Source: Octopus vulgaris
Taxonomy: Eukaryota
DNA: 64,000 nt
Direction of reading: 5' to 3'
Assembly (NCBI GenBank): GCA_951406725.2
Contig: OX597832.1
Span: 66,650,001-66,714,000, forward strand
The position numbers and the translations under genes were made by a program. The number at the start of each line of letters is the position of its first letter. Position 1 is the stretch's first letter. The notes under the pieces are model-generated. The model ran no database searches and was not told the origin of the DNA. It worked only from the letters and a program-made list of their open reading frames with translations. Shown here piece after piece: positions 3,006-64,000 of this stretch.

Positions 3006-3285
3006 CACGTGACCGACCAGGCTATCAGATGTTGCTACACATCGCTGGTCGCAATACGCTTCGCATTGCTTTAGCCTTCAAATGACGCCACCCCGCTGGC
3101 TAACCGAGCAGGAGAAAAGGAGAAAGAGTGAGAGAGAGTTGCGGTCGCCACCCCCCATGCCGTAGCCTCGTGGAGCTTTTAGGTGTTTTCGCTCTCTAAA
3201 CACTCACAACGCCCGGTCTCGGAATCGAAATCGTGATCCTACGACCGCGAGTCGGCTGCCCTAACCACTGGACCATTGCGCCTCC
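3006..3285 (-). mobile_element. tRNA-derived SINE
   Basis: Minus strand begins GGAGGCGCAATGGTCCAGTGGTTAGGGCAGCCGACTCGCGGTCGTAGGATCACGATTTCGATTCC (A-box, and B-box-like TTCGATTCC), followed by a GC-rich non-tRNA body. Confidence 0.8.
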
Positions 3286-3599: not shown

Positions 3600-4260
3600 A
3601 TCTATAACGCCCAAGTTATATTTTTTTTGTCTTAATACTAAATTTGAAAATGTTCGAGGCAGATCCAGCTAGCTTCATGGGACATTTTCTAAGTAAGAAT
3701 GAGTGTTGGGTTCATAACTGCAAACAAGAGAGAAAGGGACAATTTATGAAATTGAAGCTCTCTTCTTCTCCTGCTCCAAAGAAGAGCAAAATGGTCAAGG
3801 TCGTATCATTATGCTTATTGATTATCCTCAAAACGGTGACATCAACAATAGAGAGCAGTACGCCATCTTGGTGAGGTAGTTATGAAAGGCTGTCAAAACA
3901 ATACGCTCAGGGAATCCGCCGAAAGGGGGCCTGTTTCGTTAAGACAACGTTCCATCAAACAAGTCATTGGTTTCAATGGTTGCAGTGGGTGAGTTTGGTT
4001 TTGAAATGACTGCTCACATTTCCTATCTCCATCTGGCTATCATCTTTTCCCCAGCATGTAAAACCATTTGACTGGAAATCAATACTGCAGTGACGATGAC
4101 TCCTTATCTGCTTTTGATTGTTTCACCATCTAGATGAAAGTACTGCAATACCGATAGGAGTGTGTGTACTGCAGGGGATCATGTTGAAAATAAACTTAAT
4201 TGGGTCACATTCTATGGGTTTATATTGGTCAGCCTGTGTACTAATCAGCCGGCTCTCTTA
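3600..4260 (+). mobile_element. Degenerate mariner transposase remnant
   Basis: KNECWVHNCKQERKGQFMK...SSPAPKKSK (DExWV...PKK), DNVPSNKS (HDNAPxH-like) and SGYHLFPSM (PSDYHLF-like); frameshifted. Confidence 0.8.
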
Positions 4261-4884
4261 TAACATTTTTAGCATTTTTTGCCCGAAGGCATGTTGTAAA
4301 GTATACTCATTTATACATGGAACAAATATATTGGGTTAACATATTGGGGGGTTTAATGTTTAATACTAAGATATCATTTAACTTTGTAAATGTTTTATGG
4401 GTACGCAGTAATGTTGACAGCCCAGCGTCATCGTCGTTACAAATATTCTTTGCTGTGACCATTACATTAAGTGATCGCGTTTTCTCCGAATTGTTTATAG
4501 GTTTGGTATATGATGGTTTTGATTTTTTGTACTTGATATTTTTCCTCGTTTTTTTCTTTGTTTGAAATGCAATGCACTTTCGTACTTAGGGGAAAATATT
4601 ATCCCAGTCAAACATTATTTTGAAGGAACTTAAAATCCCTCAAATATGAATTATGTTATTTTACTACTTGTCTGCAGTCCTGAAACTCTCAGAGGAAGCT
4701 CTATGTTTCTTTCGTGTTTGTAACATGTGTATTAATTCTCTTAGAACTGCAAAGCTAGCGAGAGACACATTTTTGATAATTTTGTGTCTAGTAAAAATGT
4801 CCTTATTATTTACTATTTCGCAAAATGTATGTGGTTGTTTCATTGAATTCATTTTCTTTCGATTTTGTTTGCACTCTGTGTTAC

Positions 4885-5080
4885 TGTTACTACTTAAGCC
4901 CTTCGCTCCATTTAGGGATTTGGCCGTCCACAAGTTTTCTCCCCTTTACTCCACTCCGGGTTGTTGTACCGTTGCTCTGCAGTTGGATCTCTGCTCATTC
5001 CTCTCGACGTCAATATCACACCGCCAGGTATTTTTAGCGCATCCTCTCTTTCGCCTCAACTTGTGGATTCTATTCAACGT
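4885..5080 (-). mobile_element. 3' end of an RTE-clade LINE
   Basis: Minus strand reads NPQ..RKRGCAKNTWRCD...GAKGL followed by a short AGTAAC repeat tail; resembles the RTE C-terminus WNPQGKRKRGRPKNTWR. Confidence 0.6.
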
Positions 5081-7849: not shown

Positions 7850-10800
7850 CAGGCAGAGTGGACCTTTCATAGGTTAAAAAAGAAATGAATAAATAAATAA
7901 AAAGAAGAAGGGAAAACTATGCCCGGAGATAAAACTATCAACAAAAAAAATACAGACGAATACAGATCTGCTAGCCATAAGAAGCTGCGCTACGAACAAC
8001 ATTTACGTGCAGAGAATCCTAAACTGACAGATCCGTCTCTTAATGTAAGAGTCGAAGCTCGTCATGCTTCAATGTCAACAAAACAACCCACAATCCGAAA
8101 AGGTCGGCGAGCGGACTACAAAAGACCACGTACCCGAAAATTGAACCAAAGTCTGATTGAAAAATCAGCTACTGGAGCAAATCTTCACGACACACAGGAG
8201 CTGGACGTACCCCGCAACTGGAATATTCCAACAGATGGCCATCCATGCTCGTCACCAAACACTCAAAAGAAAAAGAAGGAAAAATGGACTAGGGAAGATA
8301 ATAAAGAAGTTCTTGCGGCCTTCTACCATGCCATATATTTCCCCACAGATAAATCGAACACTATACAAACCTACATAAACTGGAGACAGAAACACCCTGA
8401 AGTAAGACCCTACATAGACAGTAACAAACTTGCCAACGTCAGAAGAAACATTATAAAAAAAAAATTACTGACTGAAGTAGAGATTGATCAAATTAGACAA
8501 GCAGTAACGGATAGAATGAACGAAGCTGCAGCTAGAGAAGATAATACAGAGGAAATAATTATAGACCAGCTCAGAGCTAATAAAAATGAAGTAAGGATTG
8601 AAAGAGTTACTATAAATGATAGGCAAAGTGAAATACTCCCTGAACCAATCATAAACACTAAGACAGATGAACATCAAATAGATGAAGAAAGTCACACAAA
8701 TATTGACCCGACAGAACTACATGAGTTAAAAAGTCAAATCATGATTGAATGGCTGAAAATTAAAGAAACCAGTATGGATGAACGTGATACACCCCCTAAA
8801 ATCCGCAACTCTAACCAAAACATGAAAATAATTGGTAAAACCCGGCTTGTACTTAAGGATATAATTTCAGCTAATGATGTTGATATCACAGATCTCAACC
8901 ACCTATACTATGCCTCCGCGAAAATCTCAACGATCCTATGTGGTGAAAAGATTAGAAAACGGCAAATTTCCACAAAAAGCCTTCTTGGCAAGAGCGTTTG
9001 CAACAACAAATTAAACTATTTGGATCTGAACATTGAATATTTGAAAAACCTTAAGGTTCATAAGACTACCAAACCTATAAAAACCCCAAAACTAATGAAA
9101 AAATATAATATGAAAACTATACTTGATATTGATGCCACCATAGAAACCATCAAGCAAAAGGTATCTGCTAAAGCTGCCCGCATAGCGAGGTATGAAAAGA
9201 ATGTTAGATTCTTCAGGGACAACAACATGTTCAAAAATAAACCAAAAAATTTTTACAAGAAGATAGGAAAAAAAACAGTTACTGTAAAGTCTGTACCATC
9301 AAAAGAAGAAGTGCAGGGATTTTGGAATAAAATTTGGGCAGAAGAAAAAAAACACAGCGAAAAGGCCCCCTGGATTGATAGAATATCTAAAGAACTGGAC
9401 TCCTTAGAAGAGCAAAAGTGGGAAGGTGTCAAGGTAGAAGATACAAGATCTGCTCTCAGGAGGTCAAGCAAATGGAAGTCTCCAGGAAAGGATAAAATAC
9501 CTAACTTTTGGTTGAATGCCTTCCAGAGAGCCATGAACTGCTAACATAACTTTACAATGATGTTTTGCAACACCCTAGTAGGATGCCTCCTTGGCTAGTT
9601 AATGGGTTAACATTCCTGCTTCCAAAAAGTGAAGATACAAATGAACCAAAAAACTATAGACCCATAACCTGCTTAACTACTATGTATAAAACACTAGGAA
9701 TATACCTATAGTTTTTTGACAGACAGCAGCATATTCCCTAATGAACAGAAAGGATGTAAACGTGGATCCTACGGTTGTAGAAATCAACAACTCATCAATA
9801 AGATTATCTTAGAAGATTGTCACAAACGACACAAAAACTTATCAATAGCTTTTGATAGCCTACCACATAGCTGGATTAAGAAATGCCTAGAAATGTATAA
9901 GATAGCACCTGCTCTGCGAAACTTTTTGTCTGTAAGTATGAGATCATGGAGAACCACACTAACTTTGAACAGTGACAATGAATCTCTAAATGCTGGTGAT
10001 GTAAACATTTCATGTGGCATTTTCCAGGGTGACTCACTATCACCACTCCTCTTCTGTTTAGCCTTAATACCTCTCTCAAAACTGCTCAATGACGCGTAGT
10101 ACGGATATAAAATGTTTGACAAAAATATAAATCATCTCTTTTACATGGATGATTTAAAGCTCTTTGCAAAAAATGACCAACAACTCAAGGGCTTACTAGC
10201 GATTGTCAAACAATTTAGTGATGACATCAGAATGCAATTTGGCCTCGATAAGTGTGCAAAAGCAATCTTTATCAAAGGAAAAAATGACAGAAACATCTAA
10301 CGTTAACCTTGACCAGCAGAATGTCATAAAAGAATTAGACCCAGCAGAGAACTACAAGTATCTAGGGGTAATTGAATGAGAAGGAATAAGGCATTCAGAG
10401 ATGAAGGAAAGGATCAGGAGAGAATGTTATCGCAGAGTAAGAGCAATACTCAAGACAGAGCTGAATGCAAGAAACAGGATCGAAGCGATCAATGCATTAG
10501 CTATACCAGTTGTGACTTACAGTTTCAATATCGTTAACTGGTCAATTACTGAAATATGTAATCTTGACAGAAAAATACGAAAACTGTTGACAATGCATAG
10601 AATGCACCACTCTAAGGCAGATACAGAACGACTTTATCTGCCAAGAAAAGAGGGAGGCCGTGGACTTTTACAACTGGCAATAACAATAAAGTTTACTACA
10701 ATTGGCCTAGACACCTACCTGAAAAGCTCTGAGGACTGGATGTTAAAACTTGTCTCAAAACATGAAAACAAGAAAGTATCATACTCAGTAACAAAACAGG

Positions 10801-11899
10801 CAAAGGAATATATAAGTGAATTCCGAATTCAACAAATTTCGGAATTAGAGATAGACATACAAGAAACAGGCACAGAAAAAGCTAAGCGCATGAAAACCCG
10901 TGCTAAATCTGCGGCCTTAGATATTCTGAATGATAAATGGCAAGAAAAACCTCTCTATGGCAAATACCCAAAAAAAGAGCAAATAATGCTGATATTGACA
11001 AAGCCCACACCCATCAATGGCTAATGGCCTCTGGCTTAAAATCTGAAACAGAGGGGTTTATCATAGCAGCTCAAGATCAATGCCTACCAACAAGAAACTA
11101 CCAGCCAACATATTAAAGATCAGAAGCAGTCCAACGTATCGTGTATGCCAGCAACAAAATGAAACCATTGACCACGTGGTCTCCAAGTGCAGTCTTCTAG
11201 TGCCTTCAGAGTATCTCAACAGACACAATAGAGCTGCACAATCTATTCACTGGGTAATCTGCAAAAACCTGGATTTGCACCATGAAAAAACTGGTGGGAA
11301 TACAAACCACCCCCAGTGCTTGAAAATGACCACATCTCACTCCTCTGGAACTTCACCATTCAAACTGACAGAAAGATAGATGCAAATAGACCAGACATCA
11401 TATTGAAAGACTTCAAACAAAGAACATGCCTCCTCATTGATATGACTGTCCCAATCGATATAAACGTATCTGTCAAGACCTACCAAAAACTGAGCAAATA
11501 TAAAGATCTTGAAATAGAAATCAGCAAAATGTGGAAGCTGAAGACTAAAACAATACCTGTTGTCATAGGTGCCCTGGGAATGATAGCAAAAGGGGCTGAT
11601 AGCTACCTAACTCAGATACCAGGAAACCCCCAAATGGCAGAAATTCAAAAGATAGTGCTCATGGGAACTGCTCATATCCTACGCAAAATACTTTCTATGT
11701 TTAAAACAAACATAATTTTCGGTTTTTAAAAAAATTTTTTTTTCTTAGACATTCATTAGTACAACACCAAAAACTCCCCCCCCCCCAATATATGGCACAC
11801 TAGGCATAACAACAACATGAACTTCCTACCTGTTGTCTCTTAAGGTCTCTGGGTGAGACTTGGAGCCAACTTGTACAAATATAAAGCAAGTCAAACATA

Positions 11900-11900
<1 letters not shown>
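7850..11900 (+). mobile_element. Near full-length, inactivated R4/Dong-clade non-LTR retrotransposon (RT + CCHC + restriction-like endonuclease)
   Basis: N-terminal KWTREDNKEV motif; KWKSPGKDKIPNFWL; NYRPITCL; EQKGCKRGSYGC; AFDSLPHSWI; GIFQGDSLSPLLFCLALIPLS; HLFYMDDLKLFAK; RLYLPRKEGGRGL; (C>Y)RVC...ETIDHVVSKC...RHN; RPDIILKD...LIDMTVP...KLSKYKDL. The single ORF is broken into pieces 7919-9544, 9716-10099, 10112-10300, 10401-11024, 11080-11379 and 11316-11729. The 3' end abuts (AAT)n at 11901; the 5' boundary is uncertain. Confidence 0.93.
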
Positions 11901-11941
<41 letters not shown>

Positions 11942-11978
11942 TAATAATACCACCACCATCACCAACATCACAACCACC

Positions 11979-12009
<31 letters not shown>

Positions 12010-12011
12010 GC

Positions 12012-12085
<74 letters not shown>

Positions 12086-12135
12086 TAATAATAATAATAA
12101 TAATGCTAATAATAATAATAATAATGATAATAATA
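11901..12135. repeat. (AAT)n tract with (ACC)n/(AAC)n interruption at the 3' junction of the Dong-like element
   Basis: Seen directly. Confidence 0.97.
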
Positions 12136-12289
12136 TTGAGACATGATTTTATTTGAAGAAAGGATTGCTAAAAAGAGAAGGGCGGCTAAAAGGAGAAGGA
12201 CGACTAGAAAGCGAAAGATAGTTAAAAGTAGCAGCACGACAATATGTATTGAAGATAAAATGTATAAAAGCAAAGGTAGACAATAATTA

Positions 12290-13050
12290 GCTAGATTCCC
12301 AATGTGAATTAAATTTCTTCCAGCTTTGGATTTCCTGGTATACGAGAGAGATAACATTCAGCCACTTTTGCTATTATTCCTACGCTACCTATGTCAATAG
12401 GTATTCTTTTAGCCTTCGGGTTCCACATTTTGCCAACTTGTCTTTCGAGGTCCTTATATTTGCTGAGTTTTTCGTAAGTCTTGGCACATTTATTTATGTT
12501 GATTGGGACAATCATATCGATGAGGAGACATGGTTTTTCTCTGAAGTCCTTTAATATAATGTTTGGCAAATTTGCATCTAGCTTTCTGTCAGTTTGAACA
12601 GTAAAGTTCCAAAGAATTGAGATGTGATCATTTTCAAGCATCCGTTTTTATCCTATATACTGTTCCACTCTAACATACCCGTTGAGATACTCAGTTGCAA
12701 GGACAAAATACAACCGATGTTTCAGTTTTCTGGCTGTTTACTCATACAATAAGTTGGGCTTTTGCCGTTCTTTAAGATGTTGGCCTCGTATCTCCTTGTA
12801 GGAAGGCATTAATCCTTAGTTGCTATGATAAACCCTTGAGTCTCTGATTTTATGCAAGAAGATACTAACTATTGATGGGTAAGAACTTTTGTCAAAATCA
12901 GCATTATTAACTCTCCTTCGGTATTTGCCATAGAGAGGTTTTTCTTGCCATTTATCAGTAAGAATATTTAAGGCAGTAGTTGCTACTTATTTTGTTGCTG
13001 AGTGTACAGCTCTCTTGTTTTGATGCTTTCTGAAAAGATTTAGCACGATG
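12290..13050 (-). mobile_element. Older, internally deleted inverted copy of the same R4/Dong family (3' part)
   Basis: ORF 12309..12641 (LENDHISILWNFTVQTDRKLDANLPNIILKDF...KLSKYKDLE) aligns to 11316..11729; upstream DKWQEKPLYGKY homology near 12920-12960. Confidence 0.92.
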
Positions 13051-13104
13051 TAGCACGTCTAAGTTCTTACTCATTTATTTATTTATTTATTTAATATTAC
13101 TATT

Positions 13105-13364
13105 CTATGTTTGACTTTTGCTTTATGTCTGTACAAGCTGGCTCCAAGTCTCACCCAGAGACCTCAAGAGACAACAGGTTGGAAGTTCACGTTGTTGTTA
13201 TGCCTAGTGTGCCATATATTTGTTTTGGTGTTGTACTAATAAAAAAATTTTTTTTAAAGAATTTGTTTTAAACCTTGTTTTAAACATAGAGAGTATTTTG
13301 CGTAGGATATGAGCAGTTCCCATGAGCACTATCTTTTGAATTTCTGCCATTTTGGGGATTCCTG
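13105..13364 (-). mobile_element. Severely 5'-truncated (~260 bp) copy of the same Dong-like element including the 3' UTR
   Basis: Reverse complement matches 11620-11900 (CAGGAATCCCCAAAATGGCAGAAATTC ... GTCAAACATAG); bordered by (ATT)n at 13372-13452. Confidence 0.93.
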
Positions 13365-13369
13365 TTATA

Positions 13370-29720: not shown

Positions 29721-29945
29721 CTCGCAATCTATTTTCCTCGCTTACGACCTTGTGTAGTAGAGTAATAATCTAAATGGTTTCAAGACTATTTGGGGTCTAC
29801 TTCTAGCACACTAGTGTTGTAATCATTCAACACACTTATGATTTTAATATTAATTAAAATATAACTTAACTATTATCGTATTTTAGTATGCTGTCCAATC
29901 ATAAATCATTAAATAATGACTTTATCCTAATTACGTAAATTACAT

Positions 29946-30016
<71 letters not shown>

Positions 30017-30117
30017 GGAGTAAACAAATAAATGTGAAACAAGGTGGAAAAAGAGTACTCAAATACCAGTGGTAGAGTAATATGCTTTATTTTAAGCAGC
30101 AGAAAATTCAACAAGAT

Positions 30118-30155
30118 CTGTTACTCTGAGTTTCTCGTTGCCGTTCATCAGACAG
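30118..30155 (-). ncRNA. Minimal type I hammerhead ribozyme motif (PLE1 left arm)
   Basis: Minus strand CTGT-CTGATGA-ACGGCAACGA-GAAA-CTCAGAG-TA-ACAG: stem I CTGT/ACAG, core CUGAUGA/GAAA, near-palindromic stem III, GUA cleavage triplet. Confidence 0.8.
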
Positions 30156-31151
30156 TTTTTGCTAGAATGGAACTTATATATTAATTCAATCTATACTCTT
30201 ACAAACGCTACACCTTTAAAAAGAAATGGACTTGTTTGATTGGCCCTTTAGAAAAAACGGTCAATCTTCGAGCGATAAACAAAAAGGTCAAAAATATATG
30301 TATATATATATAAAAAAACTTATAAAAATTATAAAACTTATAAAATCCGAGGAAAAAACCGAGGAAAAAACCTATTGCCGTTAATGAAGACAGTACAAAT
30401 TAATGCATAGAAATTAAACCTGTTATAAATACTGCAATACATATTTATATTAAAATCCACATATATATATCAACATACACAAAAGGATGCGCGTAAACGC
30501 CATACATACATATACAGACGTATGAATATGAATCTAAATTATACACATAAAAGCATGTGTACATATATTCACGCAAACCGTCTCGCACGCAAGCTAAAAT
30601 TCATCTATGTAGCAATTCTCATATACTGAGCAAGGAGGGGGAACGAAAGAAAGGGAAAGAGAGAAAAAGGAACGAAGGAGGGGTGGGGAAAAACTTGTAG
30701 CGATATTATTGGCATCTATAGAGGCCAGTATACATACACAAGTTTGAATTGATACATATACATACCGTCGTGTGTATGCGTGCTTAAGCACAAGCATACT
30801 TTCACTTACACATACACAGATACGCATGCTTACAAATACATATGCTTTGCTATACACATACTTATATAAACATTCTAATTTTGACAACATTGCTTTTAAA
30901 AAATGGGTGCATTATTAAAAATATATACGAAAGACATATAAAATAAAATATAACATCCTATTTTGGGTCATTTATAAATAATCAAGGTAATATAAATAAT
31001 CAAGGTAATCCTATTCAATACAATAACATGAAAACAAAGTTTGTAGGTTTTTCCTAATATATATGTAGAAACAATAAGACTTTGCTATAGATCCGTCGTA
31101 GCGCTCAAGATTCAAAATCAAAATCAAAAATCAAAATACAAAATATATACT

Positions 31152-31466
31152 CTATCCATATGGTATATTTATATTCGACATTTTAAATTTAGCCGCGTGC
31201 CTACATAAGTTCATTAACTCACTTCTTTGATTCAAAGAATTATTGTCTTTGAATAATATGTGCATTTTCTCTAATAAGCAAAGCCTGCACTTGAAATTAT
31301 ATTTGTAAGCTCCATGCCTGTATGGTGCCGCCCTGTCCAGAATGCTCCATGTCACGTTGAAAGGTGGGGCTTCCTTTTCTTTTAGTTCCCAGACATATTT
31401 TGCTAGGCTGATTTTCTTCCTATTCTCTGGGTATTTAAAAGAATTCTTATGAGAATAAAATCTCAT
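31152..31466 (-). pseudogene. C-terminal fragment of a PLE GIY-YIG endonuclease (Naiad-like motif pattern)
   Basis: RFYSHKNSF...LAKYVWELK...VTWSIL..A.PY...CRLCLLEKMHIL...LNQRSELMNLCRH. The frame is open up to the inversion junction. Clade assignment is from recollection of motifs. Confidence 0.8.
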
Positions 31467-32515
31467 AAAATGTCGAATATAAATATACCATATGGATAGA
31501 GTATATATTTTGTATTTTGATTTTTGATTTTGATTTTGAATCTTGAGCGCTACGACGGATCTATAGCAAAGTCTTATTGTTTCTACATATATATTAGGAA
31601 AAACCTACAAACTTCGTTTTCATGTTATTGTATTGCATAGGATTACCTTGATTATTTATATTACCTTGATTATTTATAAATGACCCAAAATAGGATGTTA
31701 TATTTTATTTTATATGTCTTTCGTATATATTTTTAATAATGCACCCATTTTTAAAAGCAATGTTTTTCTTTAAAAAAAGCAATGTTGTCAAAATTAGAAT
31801 GTTTATATAAGTATGTGTATAGCAAAGCATATGTATTTGTAAGCATGCGTATCTGTGTGTGTGTAAGTGAAAGTATGCTTGTGCTTAAGCACGCATACAC
31901 ACGATGGTATGTATATGTATCAATTCAAACTTGTGTATGTATACTGGCCTCTATAGATGCCAATAATATCGCTACAAGTTTTCCCCACCCCTCCTTCGTT
32001 CCTTTTTCTCTCTTTCCCTTTCTTTCGTTCCCCCTCCTTGCTCAGTATATGAGAATTGCTACATAGATGAATTTTAGCTTGCGTGCGAGACGGTTTGCGT
32101 GAATATATGTACACATGCTTTTATGTGTATAATTTAGATTCATATTCATACGTCTGTATATGTATGTATGGCGTTTACGCGCATCCTTTTGTGTATGTTG
32201 ATATATATATGTGGATTTTAATATAAATATGTATTGCAGTATTTATAACAGGTTTAATTTCTATGCATTAATTTGTACTGTCTTCATTAACGGCAATAGG
32301 TTTTTTCCTCGGTTTTTTCCTCGGATTTTATAAGTTTTATAATTTTTATAAGTTTTTTTATATATATATACATATATTTTTGACCTTTTTGTTTATCGCT
32401 CGAAGATTGACCGTTTTTTCTAAAGGGCCAATCAAACAAGTCCATTTCTTTTTAAAGGTGTAGCGTTTGTAAGAGTATAGATTGAATTAATATATAAGTT
32501 CCATTCTAGCAAAAA

Positions 32516-32553
32516 CTGTCTGATGAACGGCAACGAGAAACTCAGAGTAACAG
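32516..32553 (+). ncRNA. Minimal type I hammerhead ribozyme motif (PLE1 right arm)
   Basis: CTGTCTGATGAACGGCAACGAGAAACTCAGAGTAACAG, identical to the left-arm copy. Confidence 0.8.
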
Positions 32554-32590
32554 ATTTTGTTGAATTTTCTGCTGCTTAAAATAAAGTATA

Positions 32591-32668
<78 letters not shown>

Positions 32669-32676
32669 ATTTACGT

Positions 32677-32734
32677 AAAGAATTATTAACTTCCCATTCT
32701 CTATTTTCATTTTCTTCTTTTAGAGATGTTTGTA

Positions 32735-32778
<44 letters not shown>

Positions 32779-32841
32779 ATGCATACAAACATCTCTAAAA
32801 GAAGAAAATGAAAATAGAGAATGGGAAGTTAATAATTCTTT
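32677..32841. repeat. Perfect palindrome: ~62-bp unique arms around a (TA)n centre
   Basis: AAAGAATTATTAACTTCCCATTCTCTATTTTCATTTTCTTCTTTTAGAGATGTTTGTATGC and its exact reverse complement. Confidence 0.97.
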
Positions 32842-32868
32842 ATTATTAACAACAAATTAATCATCAAA

Positions 32869-49730: not shown

Positions 49731-50762
49731 TCAGGTCATCTCATTAGCCCTGCTTGGATTTAGAATAAAGAAAACAAGTGTTAAAATATTATATTTAATT
49801 CAAATTGAATCATCAATGTATTTTCCCTAATTATCTATGACTTCCTTTTGGCTTGCGGAAGTTTCATCAAAATGATTCTGTAAACTACGAAACAAATGGC
49901 AGTCTGAAGGAGCAAAGTCGGGAGAATAAGGTGGATGAAGAATTTTTTCCAACGAAGCTCTTCGATCTTCTGTGATGTGATTCTTGCAGTATGAGGTCAC
50001 GCATTGTCCTGATGAAACATAATCCCTTTTCGATTCACTAAAGCGGGTCTTTTTCCTTCAAAACTTGGTTCAAACGCTCTAATTGCTGACAGTAGACTTG
50101 AGCACTGATTATTACATAAGGTGGTAATAATTCAAAGTTAATTACTCCTTTGCAATCCCACCAGTTACAGAGAAGTACCTTTTTCCCATGAAGTTCCCTT
50201 CTCAGTTCTGGTCGAGCTTTTCCCCTTGTACCAAGCCACTGTTTACGACGTTTAATATTTCGATAGAAGATCCATTTTTCGTCAACGGTCACAAGTTGTT
50301 GGTTTGAACTAAGATTTATTGCCAATTCTTCAACTGATAATGCAGGATTTTCTTCAAGTTATGATTCAAGGAGCTAATCATCAAATTCAACTGGATGTCC
50401 TGTTCGATCTTCATCTTCAAGGCTGAATATCTCCATTTCTGAATTTTGCAAACCATCTTCTGCAAGCATTCTTTCCTATAAATTGAGTGTATGTTTGGAG
50501 TCGCTTCGGCTACAGAGTTTCCTCATAAAGCATTGTGTGCCTCAAATCCCCTTTGAATACTTCCATGTTAGAAATGGTTTTAATCAAAGAAATTTTAATT
50601 CTATTATTCTGTAATTCTATTTAATTCTATTATTTAATTAGTTTAAATGTACACAAATGCATAGACATAATTTTTAATTCCACTACACATTCTAAAACAC
50701 TATTAAATTTCATTCAATTTTTAAAAAACGTAAAATCGGACAGAACTTATGGGATGACCTGA
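49731..50762 (-). mobile_element. Mariner element with both TIRs and TA target duplication; transposase defective and partly deleted
   Basis: TA|TCAGGTCATCTCATTAGCCCTG ... CAGAACTTATGGGATGACCTGA|TA. Minus strand VTVDEKWIFY...KKVLLCNWWDCKGVI, HQDNA*PHTA, HPPYSPDFAPSDCHLFRSLQN. Confidence 0.93.
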
Positions 50763-57410: not shown

Positions 57411-57509
<99 letters not shown>

Positions 57510-57633
57510 TAAAAGTAATTCCAACCTTGTCTGATTTTCACGTTTTATTTACAATCTTATAATGATATAATATAATATAATATAATATAATATAATAAAA
57601 TAAAATAATAGAATGTTAAACGTTCATTCTGAT

Positions 57634-57678
57634 TGAACTAGTACTTTCATGCATTAAATTCTGCAATCTTCAGGTTCA
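57634..57678 (-). ncRNA. Type I hammerhead ribozyme motif (PLE2 left arm)
   Basis: TGAAC-CTGAAGA-TTGCAGAATTTAATGCAT-GAAA-GTAC-TA-GTTCA: stem I TGAAC/GTTCA, stem II TGCA/TGCA, palindromic stem III. Confidence 0.8.
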
Positions 57679-58109
57679 TATAGTAGTAGTGACAGTCATG
57701 CTTCACAATTTTTGACTGTAGCGAGATGATTGAATCTGTGCTTTAAATACAGCTGTGTAGGCTCCAGATGCTAGGTTTTGCAAACTGTATTCTGACCAAT
57801 CAGTGTGTAGTATCACTCAATTACTTAAGCTGATTGGTTGGTTGAGCTGATTGGTTGGTTGAGCTAATTGGTTTAGGCGTCACGCTTTGTTGGACATGTC
57901 AGACGTCCTGTATCTTGACCCTGGCCGAAGCAGCAATTGTTGGGCTATTTTTAGAAATGGTGTAAATAGCCTTTGTCAGAGATTTTTATATTTTTATATT
58001 TCAATTTTTCATCATCATCATTGTCAGCACCTTAATTATTGTTGCTAGTGATGGCAATATAACTTTTAACCCTAAATAAGATATATTTCCTGCTATCTAA
58101 GTATTATTA

Positions 58110-59214
58110 TTATTGCTTATTTAGCTTGGGTTCCAATTTATCAATAACATTCTTTTCTCTGATTTTCCTCTCGATTTCACTTGGGCTGTGTAATTTGTAG
58201 AATGGAAATATTATATATATATTCCGGCCACATGTTTCTAGGTGGTTACTCAAAGGTATCTCACGGACCTCTGGGTCTCTAATATGTTGTCGGTGTACAC
58301 GTGAACGTTCTGGTAGTGCGTTTCCCGTCTGACATAATATATATTTCTTCACAATTCGGGCATTTTGATGCAGTAACTTAAATTTCTGCTTTTGCAGTTC
58401 ATATTCGCGTTTGTGAATATTTTCCCGGTTTTTGTGTTTATATATTGGCCGGTATGTATGAATTGGCATGTGCCACATCGGCTATCATTGCATTTAGATA
58501 CAGTGAATGTTTGGTCTTTGTTGCTAAGGTCAAATTTTGCCTTTGTTAGTAATTTTTGCAAGCTTTTAGGCTGTCTTTTACTAAGCACCATAGCTCGATC
58601 CGTGATTATGTCTTTTAATTCATTATTTTGGGCAATGATTGGTAGGTTTGCTTTGGTTGAAGATATTCTAGTGACATGGGTTGTGTGTCATTATGAATGG
58701 TATGACTTGATGTTGTTTCCTTTTTCTTGGGTTGTCCTACGTTGTTGTATGGGTATTTTTAGAGCCCGCTGTATGCCATTTTCTATAAGTAGAGATGGGT
58801 ATTTTTGTTTGAGCAGAACTTCTCTTGGTTTTATTAGGCGTTTGTTCCTGATATTTGCATCTTCTATAATGGTACAAATTCTTCTGGCTAGGCAGTATGG
58901 GATGTTGCGTTTTGTATGTGGTGGATGGCACGACTTAAAATTTAGGTATTGATGTGTGTCTGTGTGTTTATAGAATATATCTGTGGTGATGGTGGTGTCT
59001 TTTTTAATTACCATTATATCTAGGAATGGTAATTTGGTACTACTCATCCCCTTTGTAAATTGGAGAGAAGGGTGTAGGTTGTTCAGGAGGATATTGAAAT
59101 CTTCCAGAGTATTTAGAGATTCTGTCCAGATTATGAAGCAGTCGTCAAGGTATCTCTTCCATGCCTTTTCAATATACTTACTATATCCAGTGTCATAGTT
59201 TACCTCCACCTCTT
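58110..59214 (-). pseudogene. PLE RT C-terminus/thumb, Cys linker and GIY-YIG endonuclease (frameshifted)
   Basis: WKRYLDDCFIIW; LPFLDIMV; TDIFYKHTDTHQYLNFKSCHPPHTKRNIPY; KCNDSRCGTC; MNCKSRNL.YCIKCPNC; ERSRVHR; REKNVIDKLEPKLN. Confidence 0.92.
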
Positions 59215-59530
59215 GGAAAATATTCACAAACGCGAATATGAACTGCAAAAGCAGAAATTTAATTTACTGCATCAAATGCCCGAATTGTGAAGAAATATAT
59301 GTAGGTCAGACGGGAAACGCACTATCAGAACGTTCACGTGTACACCGACGACAGATTAGAGACCCAGAGGTCTGTGAGATACATTTAAGTAACCACCTAG
59401 CAACATGTGGCCGGAAAATTTAAATAATATTCCCATTCTAAAAATTACACAGCCCAAGTGAAATCGAGAGGAAAATCAGAGAAAATAATTTTATTGATAA
59501 ATTGGAACCCAAGCTAAATAAGCAATAATA
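59215..59530 (+). pseudogene. Inverted second copy of the GIY-YIG domain
   Basis: MNCKSRNLIYCIKCPNCEEIYVGQTGNALSERSRVHR; premature stops. Confidence 0.9.
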
Positions 59531-59749
59531 ATAAAACTTAGATAGCAGGAAATATATCTTATTTAGGTTTAAAAGTTATATTGCCATCACTAGCAACAAT
59601 AATTAAGGTGCTGACAATGATGATGATGACAATTGAAATATAAAATATAAAAATCTCTGACAAAGGCTATTTACAACATTTCGAAAAATAGCCCAACAAT
59701 TGCTGCTTCGGCCAGGGTCAAGATACAGGACTCTTGACATGTCCAACAA

Positions 59750-59910
59750 ATCGTGACGCCTAAACCAATCAGCTCAACCAACCAATCAGCTTAAGTAATT
59801 GAGTGATACTACACACTGATTGGTCAAAATACAGTTTGCAAAACCTAGCATCTGGAGCCTACACAGCTGTATTTAAAGCACATATTCAATCATCTCGCTA
59901 CAGTCAAAAA
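59750..59910 (+). promoter_or_regulatory. Putative pseudo-LTR Pol II promoter (mirror copy at ~57710-57885, minus strand)
   Basis: GTGACG, two tandem CCAATCAGC boxes plus a reversed CTGATTGG, then TATTTAAA (~59870) and an Inr-like TACAGTC ~30 nt downstream, just before the hammerhead. Confidence 0.45.
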
Positions 59911-59940
59911 TTGTGAAGCATGACTGTCACCACTACTACA

Positions 59941-59985
59941 TGAACCTGAAGATTGCAGAATTTAATGCATGAAAGTTCTAGTTCA
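59941..59985 (+). ncRNA. Hammerhead motif (PLE2 right arm), stem III palindrome mutated GTAC>GTTC
   Basis: TGAACCTGAAGATTGCAGAATTTAATGCATGAAAGTTCTAGTTCA. Confidence 0.7.
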
Positions 59986-60136
59986 ATCAGAATGAACATT
60001 TAACATTCTATTATTTTATTTTATTATATTATATTATATTATGTTATCTTATATCATTATAAAAGTGTAAATAAAACGTGAAAATCAATGTTGGAATTCC
60101 TTTTATTAATATATTCTTCTATACACAATCACACCC

Positions 60137-63526: not shown

Positions 63527-64000
63527 ATATATATAATTTTTTGAAAGGGTAATAAAAATCTACGAATATATACTAAATACACAGGCGAACAGAAAACACA
63601 GAAAGACACCAACTTCTCTTTAGTTACCGGCCAGAGGTTCAAATCACAGTTTCGGTCATTATCGATAATATTCCTTCCACTCTGGCGGCACCGGTAAGAA
63701 GCATGCCGCGAATGGGACCAAAACATACCAAGACGAGACGGGTACGAGACGAGACCGACCGTTAGAAAAATGACGGAGGACAAAACAATAAACAAGATAA
63801 AGAAAAGAAAATGGGCATTAGAAAGTTAATAATTGTTTATACTTAACAGCAAATTGATCATCGTCACTTACAACCGTTTAAATTAACGCTCAAGAAACAT
63901 TAAATTTACATTAATGTGCTGGTATGTGATGATGATCGATTTATTATTAATTATAAACAATCATTAACTTTCTAATGGCCATTTTCTTTTCTTGTTATGT

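Follow-up and report, generated by a model that had tools for sequence, protein, structure and literature searches.

Here we describe an inverted insertion in a 64,000-nt stretch of the Octopus vulgaris genome (assembly GCA_951406725.2, contig OX597832.1, positions 66,650,001 to 66,714,000 of the forward strand), which as a whole is called the window. By its sequence, the locus belongs to a young family of Hydra-clade Penelope-like elements (PLEs) and is an inverted, 5'-truncated insertion in (TA)n. Counts across this family make it probable that reverse transcription is primed by both ends of the cut (TA)n target, each using one of two fixed start sites of the element, with a single uncleaved RNA as the most likely template. 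The layout of the fold-back does not mark a special element; it turned out to be the commonest insertion form of the family. The window locus itself is ordinary, and it is the family that is useful for mechanism.

Structure of the insertion in the window

Local alignment of the window recovered the inverted arms at 30085-31185 and 31466-32586, with (TA)n beyond both outer ends of the insert (29944-30014 and 32587-32665) and a 70-nt tail (30015-30084) on the left end only. This reproduced the arm coordinates, the outward 3' ends in (TA)n, and the left-only tail of about 70 nt in the original prediction. Rather than a spacer, the 280 nt that separate the arms are the continuation of the left arm into the 3' end of the open reading frame (ORF), the GIY-YIG region; compared with the full family ORF, this centre gave a tblastn E value of 4e-62. 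Two element fragments thus make up the window insert in head-to-head arrangement, one at 30015-31463 (minus strand) and one at 31466-32586 (plus strand). Its features are as follows (RT, reverse transcriptase; cDNA, complementary DNA; UTR, untranslated region; pLTR, pseudo-long terminal repeat).

29931..29944, plus strand: left target flank, 14 nt, repeated inverted at 32665-32678 (sequence comparison)
29944..30014, no strand: left (TA)n target half (repeat observed), putative primer of the tailed cDNA
30015..30084, minus strand: 70-nt tail, element sequence between the two putative RT start sites (alignment and family mapping)
30085..31185, minus strand: left arm with 3' UTR/pLTR and last ORF codons; 21-bp deletion at 30894/30895 (alignment)
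30108..30168, minus strand: left hammerhead motif with extended stem I; private change at 30115 (motif and folding)
31152..31463, minus strand: C-terminal ~103 codons of the Hydra-clade ORF (GIY-YIG end, CxxC, CxH) and stop, in the left cDNA
31447..31468, plus strand: inversion junction with an 8-bp snap-back hairpin, 31447-31454/31461-31468 (sequence)
31466..32586, plus strand: right arm with last ORF codons, 3' UTR/pLTR, and tail-less end (alignment)
32503..32563, plus strand: right hammerhead motif with extended stem I, core from 32520, and predicted cut after 32549 (motif and folding)
32587..32665, no strand: right (TA)n target half (repeat observed), putative primer of the tail-less cDNA
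32665..32740, no strand: inverted duplication of target-flank DNA (alignment)

The arms differ by five substitutions (30115/32556, 30767/31905, 30813/31859, 31015/31636, and 31036/31615), two 1-nt run-length indels, and one 21-nt gap at 31757-31777. The predicted half dozen or so substitutions and indels were thus found, while the supposed ~22-bp insertion near 31760 had to be reversed: the 21 nt were present in 51-53 sampled loci and missing from the window left arm alone, and because they are the common family state, the difference is a 21-bp deletion in the left arm and not an insertion in the right one.

At the junction, family sequence continues on each side of the inversion point. The left arm ends at 31463 and the right arm runs from 31466, with a 3-nt overlap with the snap-back extension, the final 3 nt of the hairpin being the initial 3 nt of the right arm. 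A hairpin followed by a short overlap is typical of synthesis-dependent microhomology joining. This junction was met just once in the sample. Among contigs from four other DNA-type runs, none bridged 31463-31466; these contigs were filtered and probably come from other individuals, and a hole there proves nothing.

Beyond the right (TA)n, the segment 32665-32740 consists of the reverse complement of 29931-29944, a 3-nt overlap, and then an exact inverted copy of 32778-32842. The 65 nt of duplicated right flank are identical to 32778-32842, a repeat that is only 83-93% like its other genomic copies. Such identity suggests that a snap-back and template switch took place at the target recently, perhaps in the same event as the insertion. 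Inverted flank duplication was rejected as a family rule, since it was present in only 4/99 blocks. An older palindrome (77%) at 63800-63993 is related to the repeat at 32778-32865. The insert is likely neutral debris, unable to encode a working protein.

A young Hydra-clade family in (TA)n

The family has roughly 4,000-5,000 insertions in the 2.8-Gb host genome, in which the 280-nt centre identified 919 candidates, the best with 99-100% identity. A natural full copy, L049, is a 3,336-bp unit made of leader, 711-aa ORF, 1.1-kb 3' region, hammerhead, and tail; unit positions are counted on this copy, the reference string of which has 2 nt repeated at the ends. The 711-aa ORF was open in 8 of the 96 fetched loci. 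In full-length tandem copies the tail sequence continues into the ORF leader. We found 11 partial-tandem pLTRs in the mapped loci and 69 exact tail-to-ORF junctions genome-wide. A base difference between internal and terminal tails was considered and rejected, the terminal allele being present in 10 of the 11 internal copies.

Pfam and PDB sequence searches of the full 711-aa ORF gave no match, and the clade assignment is therefore based on motifs and homologues. The ORF contains RWK (residue 53), DKT (129, with DKG absent), YRDD, CxxC-E (CxxCxxE at 683), and CxH (CRH at 711), the last two within the window fragment; CCHH was judged absent by eye. Relatives of the ORF numbered 1,728 at E<=1e-30. 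Among the 120 homologues listed, RWK was found in 89, DK[TS] in 118, the CxCX5C linker in 114, and PF01541, which we take to be GIY-YIG, in one. The linker region lies outside the truncated window copy and was intact in 14 of the 55 family copies read. Its second Cys is Phe in 39 of the 55, intact-ORF copies included, in a sample biased toward the subfamily of the window; TA targeting persists. TA flanked both sides of 57/65 inverted blocks and 19/36 other blocks.

In the available part of PMC8557442 (Craig et al. 2021), the marks of the Hydra clade are RWK, DKT in place of DKG, the CxCX5C linker, CxxC and CxH flanking the conserved E and N with no CCHH, and (TA)n insertion. The family unit exceeds the <3 kb of this clade; the same text calls Hydra elements only "generally" short, hence length is a tendency and not a defining trait. 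The Penelope-like origin that had been predicted was supported, and motifs and homologues refined the clade to Hydra. By eye, and against the published Hydra sequences at hand, the family is a new member of the clade. Identity with Hydra-1_Obim was rejected, because the protein N-terminus and the hammerhead differ in the published portion compared by eye. We also rejected a non-LTR retrozyme: the insert holds ORF remnants and is inverted, not a tandem non-coding array.

One tail per inverted insertion

The mapped set comprised the window itself, 36 loci chosen because they resemble it, and a run of 60 consecutive hammerhead loci on C1. Inverted blocks made up 66 of the 102 mapped blocks. Automatic classification assigned both ends in 58 inverted blocks, and every one of these combined a tailed with a tail-less end; as L120 is a duplicate of L119, 57 of them are independent. 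When the other blocks were reviewed by hand, three more mixed insertions and one exception emerged, so that 60 of 61 two-ended insertions were mixed. L094, which passed no alignment filter and whose 3' end is tail-less, was kept outside the counts. L119 and L120 contain the same mini insertion with its flanks, 60 kb apart and in opposite orientation, a segmental duplication.

The same result was obtained from coordinates only: in C1:1-66.6 Mb, all 51 divergent end pairs within 8 kb were mixed, including 22 outside the fetched sample. Genome-wide, exact ends were similar in number, 4,851 tailed and 4,195 tail-less, and both types were also found alone in non-inverted copies. Because each occurs alone, both are true start sites. 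Furthermore, the end junctions fit a primer ending in TA. In L068, L088, and L125, ends lie at unusual points inside the tail and the target is (GATA)n or (CT)n, not (TA)n, hinting that target pairing can shift the start site.

Shared variants of the two arms

At 94 non-CpG polymorphic sites in 56 events, the arms shared 186 minor alleles and differed in 35 (84% shared), many of the unshared cases lying in indel-prone spots. When arms were re-paired in 1000 shuffles, the shared fraction averaged 10% and never exceeded 27%. Of the private variants in the 56 events, 26 were common to both arms and 84 confined to one arm. L120 and the second L073 block were excluded from this test; the latter proved later to be a separate haplotype. 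The window arms share four polymorphic variants and one private variant, and their differences are rare alleles seen in 1-2 loci, with the exception of one run-length indel. We conclude that a single source lineage gave rise to both arms, which diverged afterwards.

The window arms differ at 5/1012 sites (0.5%; median over 27 events, 0.34%). Since they are only 0.5% apart, the insertion is recent, in line with the youth originally ascribed to it. Still less diverged is L117 (G000:C1:64213500-64223499), in which two inverted full-length units, each with an upstream pLTR, show 0 substitutions over 3,206 aligned sites, a very recent fold-back of ~7.6 kb.

Stop points, minis, and joins

In the C1 sample, 54 of 106 5' ends fell at unit 3179-3210, and 1 of 106 was near the predicted hammerhead cut at 3232. 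We therefore rejected the hammerhead cut as the definer of template 5' ends, and, with only one end near the GUA, family copies come from RNA uncut at this site. Two features coincide at unit 3186: the A of an initiator-like motif, as judged by the general initiator consensus, and the 5' base of the extended stem I (3186-3246). In the window, the family 5'-end hot spot is the A at 32503, inside the initiator-like motif. We read unit 3186 as a putative RNA 5' end, produced either by transcription start or by trimming to the stem.

Inverted insertions of ~240 bp that end at the 3186 hot spot, here called minis, accounted for 24 of 49 simple inverted events. One palindromic mini junction, centred on a self-complementary 4-mer, was present in 144 exact copies on two haplotypes, and the junctions of long events were all different. 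Overlaps of a few bases were seen at 43 of 64 junctions; 9 were blunt and 12 had inserts.

Among the long events, both arms stopped within 15 nt of each other in 4 of 24 (null mean, 0.42; p=0.0006) and within 60 nt in 6 of 24 (p=0.002). Either arm can be longer: the tail-less one was so in 13 of 25 long events, often by >1 kb. In L061, L083, L087, L111, and L101, the tailed arm stops before leaving the tail, and the two arms have no overlap. Because of the coincident stops and these five events, a single RNA is favoured, and the data hint that one RNA molecule was the template of both arms. Recurrent 5' stops, in small numbers, were seen at unit 40 (two loci) and unit 1061 (two loci) among L060, L118, and L124.

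Hammerhead motifs

Each window arm carries a type I hammerhead-like motif, with the core at 32520 (plus strand) and 30151 (minus strand), and an Rfam scan of the window gave no match at the gathering score. The 34-nt core has 3,674 exact genome copies and its reversed control has 0. In order, the motif consists of stem I, the core, stem II (2 bp, closed by A.A, with a GCAA loop), GAAA, a palindromic stem III, and GUA. The homodimer cofold was -24.6 kcal/mol, compared with -11.2 kcal/mol for the misfolding monomer. Stem III (CUC-A-GAG) is predicted to form in the dimer, and the predicted fold of the monomer is not a hammerhead. The 2-bp stem II closed by A.A makes self-cleavage activity in this family doubtful. 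The private change at 30115 weakens the left stem I (fold of -8.9 versus -12.2 kcal/mol).

The hammerheads had been described as back to back. There is indeed one motif per arm, but they are not adjacent, lying at the outer ends ~2.35 kb apart on opposite strands. Likewise, the proposed dimer via the palindromic stem III was predicted in the homodimer cofold, but since the two window motifs are on opposite strands, they cannot dimerise within one transcript.

Priming from both target ends and its alternatives

In the available text of PMC11167929, the RT/GIY-YIG protein of a Poseidon-clade element cuts and extends both strands in vitro, reverse transcription starts at two sites bracketing the tail, the template is uncleaved RNA, and the protein is a predicted dimer. 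Together with these results, the one-tail, shared-variant, and stop-point rules argue that each cut end probably primes at one of the two sites. In the window, the protein would cut both (TA)n strands and leave primers ending in TA. One end would prime at the upstream site, giving the tail-less right arm, and the other ~70 nt downstream, giving the tailed left arm and displacing the first cDNA where they overlap. Both cDNAs would stop early; the end of the left cDNA would then snap back by 5 nt and anneal to the end of the right cDNA via 3 nt. This last step would resemble microhomology-mediated end joining, with host repair filling in.

Several observations weigh against such priming on one RNA. 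L090 is tail-less at both ends, with an 11-nt remnant, and one end is atypical in 8 of the 66 inverted blocks. As to sampling, similarity to the window guided the choice of the first 36 loci, and the other 60 come from one chromosome. Two RNAs from a single active source would also account for the shared variants, as would gene conversion once the insertion was in place, although the 84 private differences seen in one arm only argue against wholesale conversion. BLAST over-extension can inflate the microhomology count. A leading and a trailing cDNA on one RNA predict longer tail-less arms, and the count was 13 versus 11, so that trimming or displacement must be invoked. Finally, none of the 11 upstream pLTRs in tandem copies starts at 3186-3200; long copies are not simple run-offs of linear RNA from 3186-3200, and a multimeric, circular, or jumped template is therefore needed.

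Two RNAs of the same active source, perhaps held as a double hammerhead via stem III, might instead sit on an asymmetric dimer and each be primed at a different site. This accounts for the shared variants and for the lack of an arm-length bias (13 versus 11), and it is in the homodimer that stem III is predicted to form. We nevertheless consider it unlikely, since it needs a built-in asymmetry to yield 60/61 mixed ends, does not by itself explain the coincident stops (p=0.0006) or the tail-only arms ending before the other start site, and should lead to cutting at the GUA, yet the copies run through it. Self-priming, in which one cDNA or antisense RNA folds back and is copied into the second arm, was proposed in the part of PMC3846280 available. 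Some junctions are perfect palindromes (the 144-copy mini junction, L038, and L033), the window junction has a short snap-back, and the arms share variants, all as expected. The second arm must then nest in the first, however, and a tail is not copyable from a tail-less arm. Instead, 13 of 25 long events had a tail-less arm that extended beyond the tailed one in the 5' direction, frequently by >1 kb, five events had non-overlapping arms, and the window arms start 278 nt apart. The palindromic mini junction, with its 4-mer centre and two haplotypes, is also what a recurrent microhomology join would give. Self-priming is accordingly improbable.

We regard as slightly more improbable still that the fold-back moves as a unit, as a retrozyme-like inverted element or one resembling miniature inverted-repeat transposable elements would, copied whole from a read-through hairpin RNA. 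The abundance of minis (24/49 simple events) and the junction found 144 times would suit such mobility, but the long-event junctions are all different, that of the window was met once in the sample, and the minis themselves show many junctions and several haplotypes. An assembly or read artefact is very improbable. Long inverted repeats beside (TA)n are hard to assemble, and no contig of the four other runs (contigs probably of other individuals) bridged the junction; private arm differences, the 21-bp deletion, asymmetric ends, and a templated snap-back junction speak against it, as do dozens of family copies that follow the same rule. The earlier statement that this is no exact read fold-back thus held, the layout recurring in 66/102 family blocks. 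As for a device selected by the host, either an antisense-locked ribozyme switch or a source of double-stranded RNA (dsRNA) or editing, a 1.1-kb duplex would form if the locus were transcribed through. This idea is hardly credible: the insertion is recent (5/1012 sites) and one of thousands alike, no host exon was seen among the 60/106 longer ORFs scanned, and the left hammerhead already has a stem-weakening change.

Beyond priming from both cut ends at the two fixed sites, which remains the probable course of events, there is a more general proposal, to which we give somewhat less than an even chance. PLE integration may be a fixed twin priming, in which one protein dimer and one RNA offer two start sites, assigned one per end of the double-strand cut, and overlapping cDNAs form via strand displacement; the tail and the inverted copy would then be one phenomenon. 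Priming on a transcript 5' module beginning exactly at the base of the extended hammerhead stem would run off after 85 and 150 nt, giving the thousands of ~240-bp hammerhead palindromes dispersed across this genome.

Read-through transcripts and neighbouring features

The putative starts in both arms point outward into (TA)n. Base pairing makes it possible that, in RNA transcribed across the insert, the arms would anneal over 1.1 kb and thereby prevent the hammerhead from folding. Thousands of palindromes of this kind, were they transcribed in the same way, would supply the host with both long and short dsRNA. No host gene or exon was found among the 60/106 longer ORFs of the window that were scanned, a scan in which short exons would be missed; its matches were transposon domains and one weak match to a domain of unknown function (DUF). 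No run containing the sequence was registered as RNA; in four that were guessed to be RNA, contigs pile up on the hammerhead-tail module of L049 and are sparse on either side. This is not evidence of transcription, as contigs do not allow parts to be ranked and minis give the same step in DNA.

Other repeats are present in the window. A second, older fold-back of a different PLE family (57507-60110, arms about 90% alike) contains fragments of RT and GIY-YIG together with a CxxC linker, and has two hammerhead-like motifs of its own that face outward, at 57673 (minus) and 59946 (plus). An older inverted repeat (79-82%) at 10914-13368 lies beside a decayed RT of the long interspersed nuclear element (LINE) type (RVT_1 at 9698-10096, zf-RVT at 11047-11376), and a Mariner-type transposase fragment is located at 50041-50358 (PF01359, E 6e-21).

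Comparison with known systems

A parallel outside PLEs is twin priming of LINE-1, reportedly described by Ostertag and Kazazian in 2001, in which both target strands are said to prime on one RNA and the cDNAs to be joined by microhomology. There, the second primer is said to lie at a variable internal site, with arms that barely overlap. In the present family, by contrast, both start sites are fixed at the 3' end with 70 nt between them, and the sequence duplicated in the arms can reach kilobases.

Inverted truncated copies, one-end tails, (TA)n targeting, and minimal hammerheads are already published, as seen in the available parts of PMC8557442, PMC3846280, PMC4209133, and PMC2377424. With the Hydra clade as presented in PMC8557442, the family shares a single ORF of RT and C-terminal GIY-YIG, the clade motifs, and (TA)n insertion. 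It differs in its 3,336-bp unit with a 1.1-kb 3' region (usually <3 kb) and in its tail of ~70 nt (30-40 nt). The same text notes an inverted 5'-truncated copy of Penelope-13_HM and treats the formation of tandem and inverted PLE insertions as an open question. When the Hydra-2_aMil hammerhead (File S2 of that paper) is compared by eye, stem I, core, stem III, and cut site read alike, whereas stem II of our family differs and has only 2 bp. According to the accessible text of PMC4209133 (Cervera and de la Pena 2014), metazoan PLE hammerheads are minimal type I motifs with an unstable palindromic helix III, a predicted dimer, and low expected activity. Type I topology, palindromic stem III, and dimer prediction are the same here; the motifs there have a helix II of 4-8 bp, in contrast to 2 bp with A.A at the base.

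Drosophila Penelope and Adineta Pen2a, in the portions of PMC2377424 and PMC3846280 consulted, also have head-to-head inverted copies with an optional one-sided tail, an Inr-like pLTR motif, and microhomology at 5' junctions. Their authors favoured self-priming on an antisense template, against which the arm lengths in this family argue. Neither twin priming of PLEs nor a one-tail-per-inverted-insertion rule with counts was found in the literature searched, most subscription papers lying outside it. In this very young, high-copy family with intact ORFs, the counts favour two-end priming at two fixed sites and oppose fold-back, and the family supplies concrete RNA coordinates for an in vitro test.

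Poseidon_Ac (PAc; Frangieh et al. 2024, PMC11167929), as far as that paper was available, offers an in vitro mechanism for comparison. It has in common with the present family two start sites bracketing the tail and an AT-rich target, as well as cutting and extension of both strands, an uncleaved template, and a predicted protein dimer, these latter features being those of PAc in vitro. In the part of that paper seen, the two start sites are not linked to inverted insertions. PAc belongs to a different clade, and for it no difference in start site between the strands is reported, whereas the two ends of an insertion of this family almost never use the same site.

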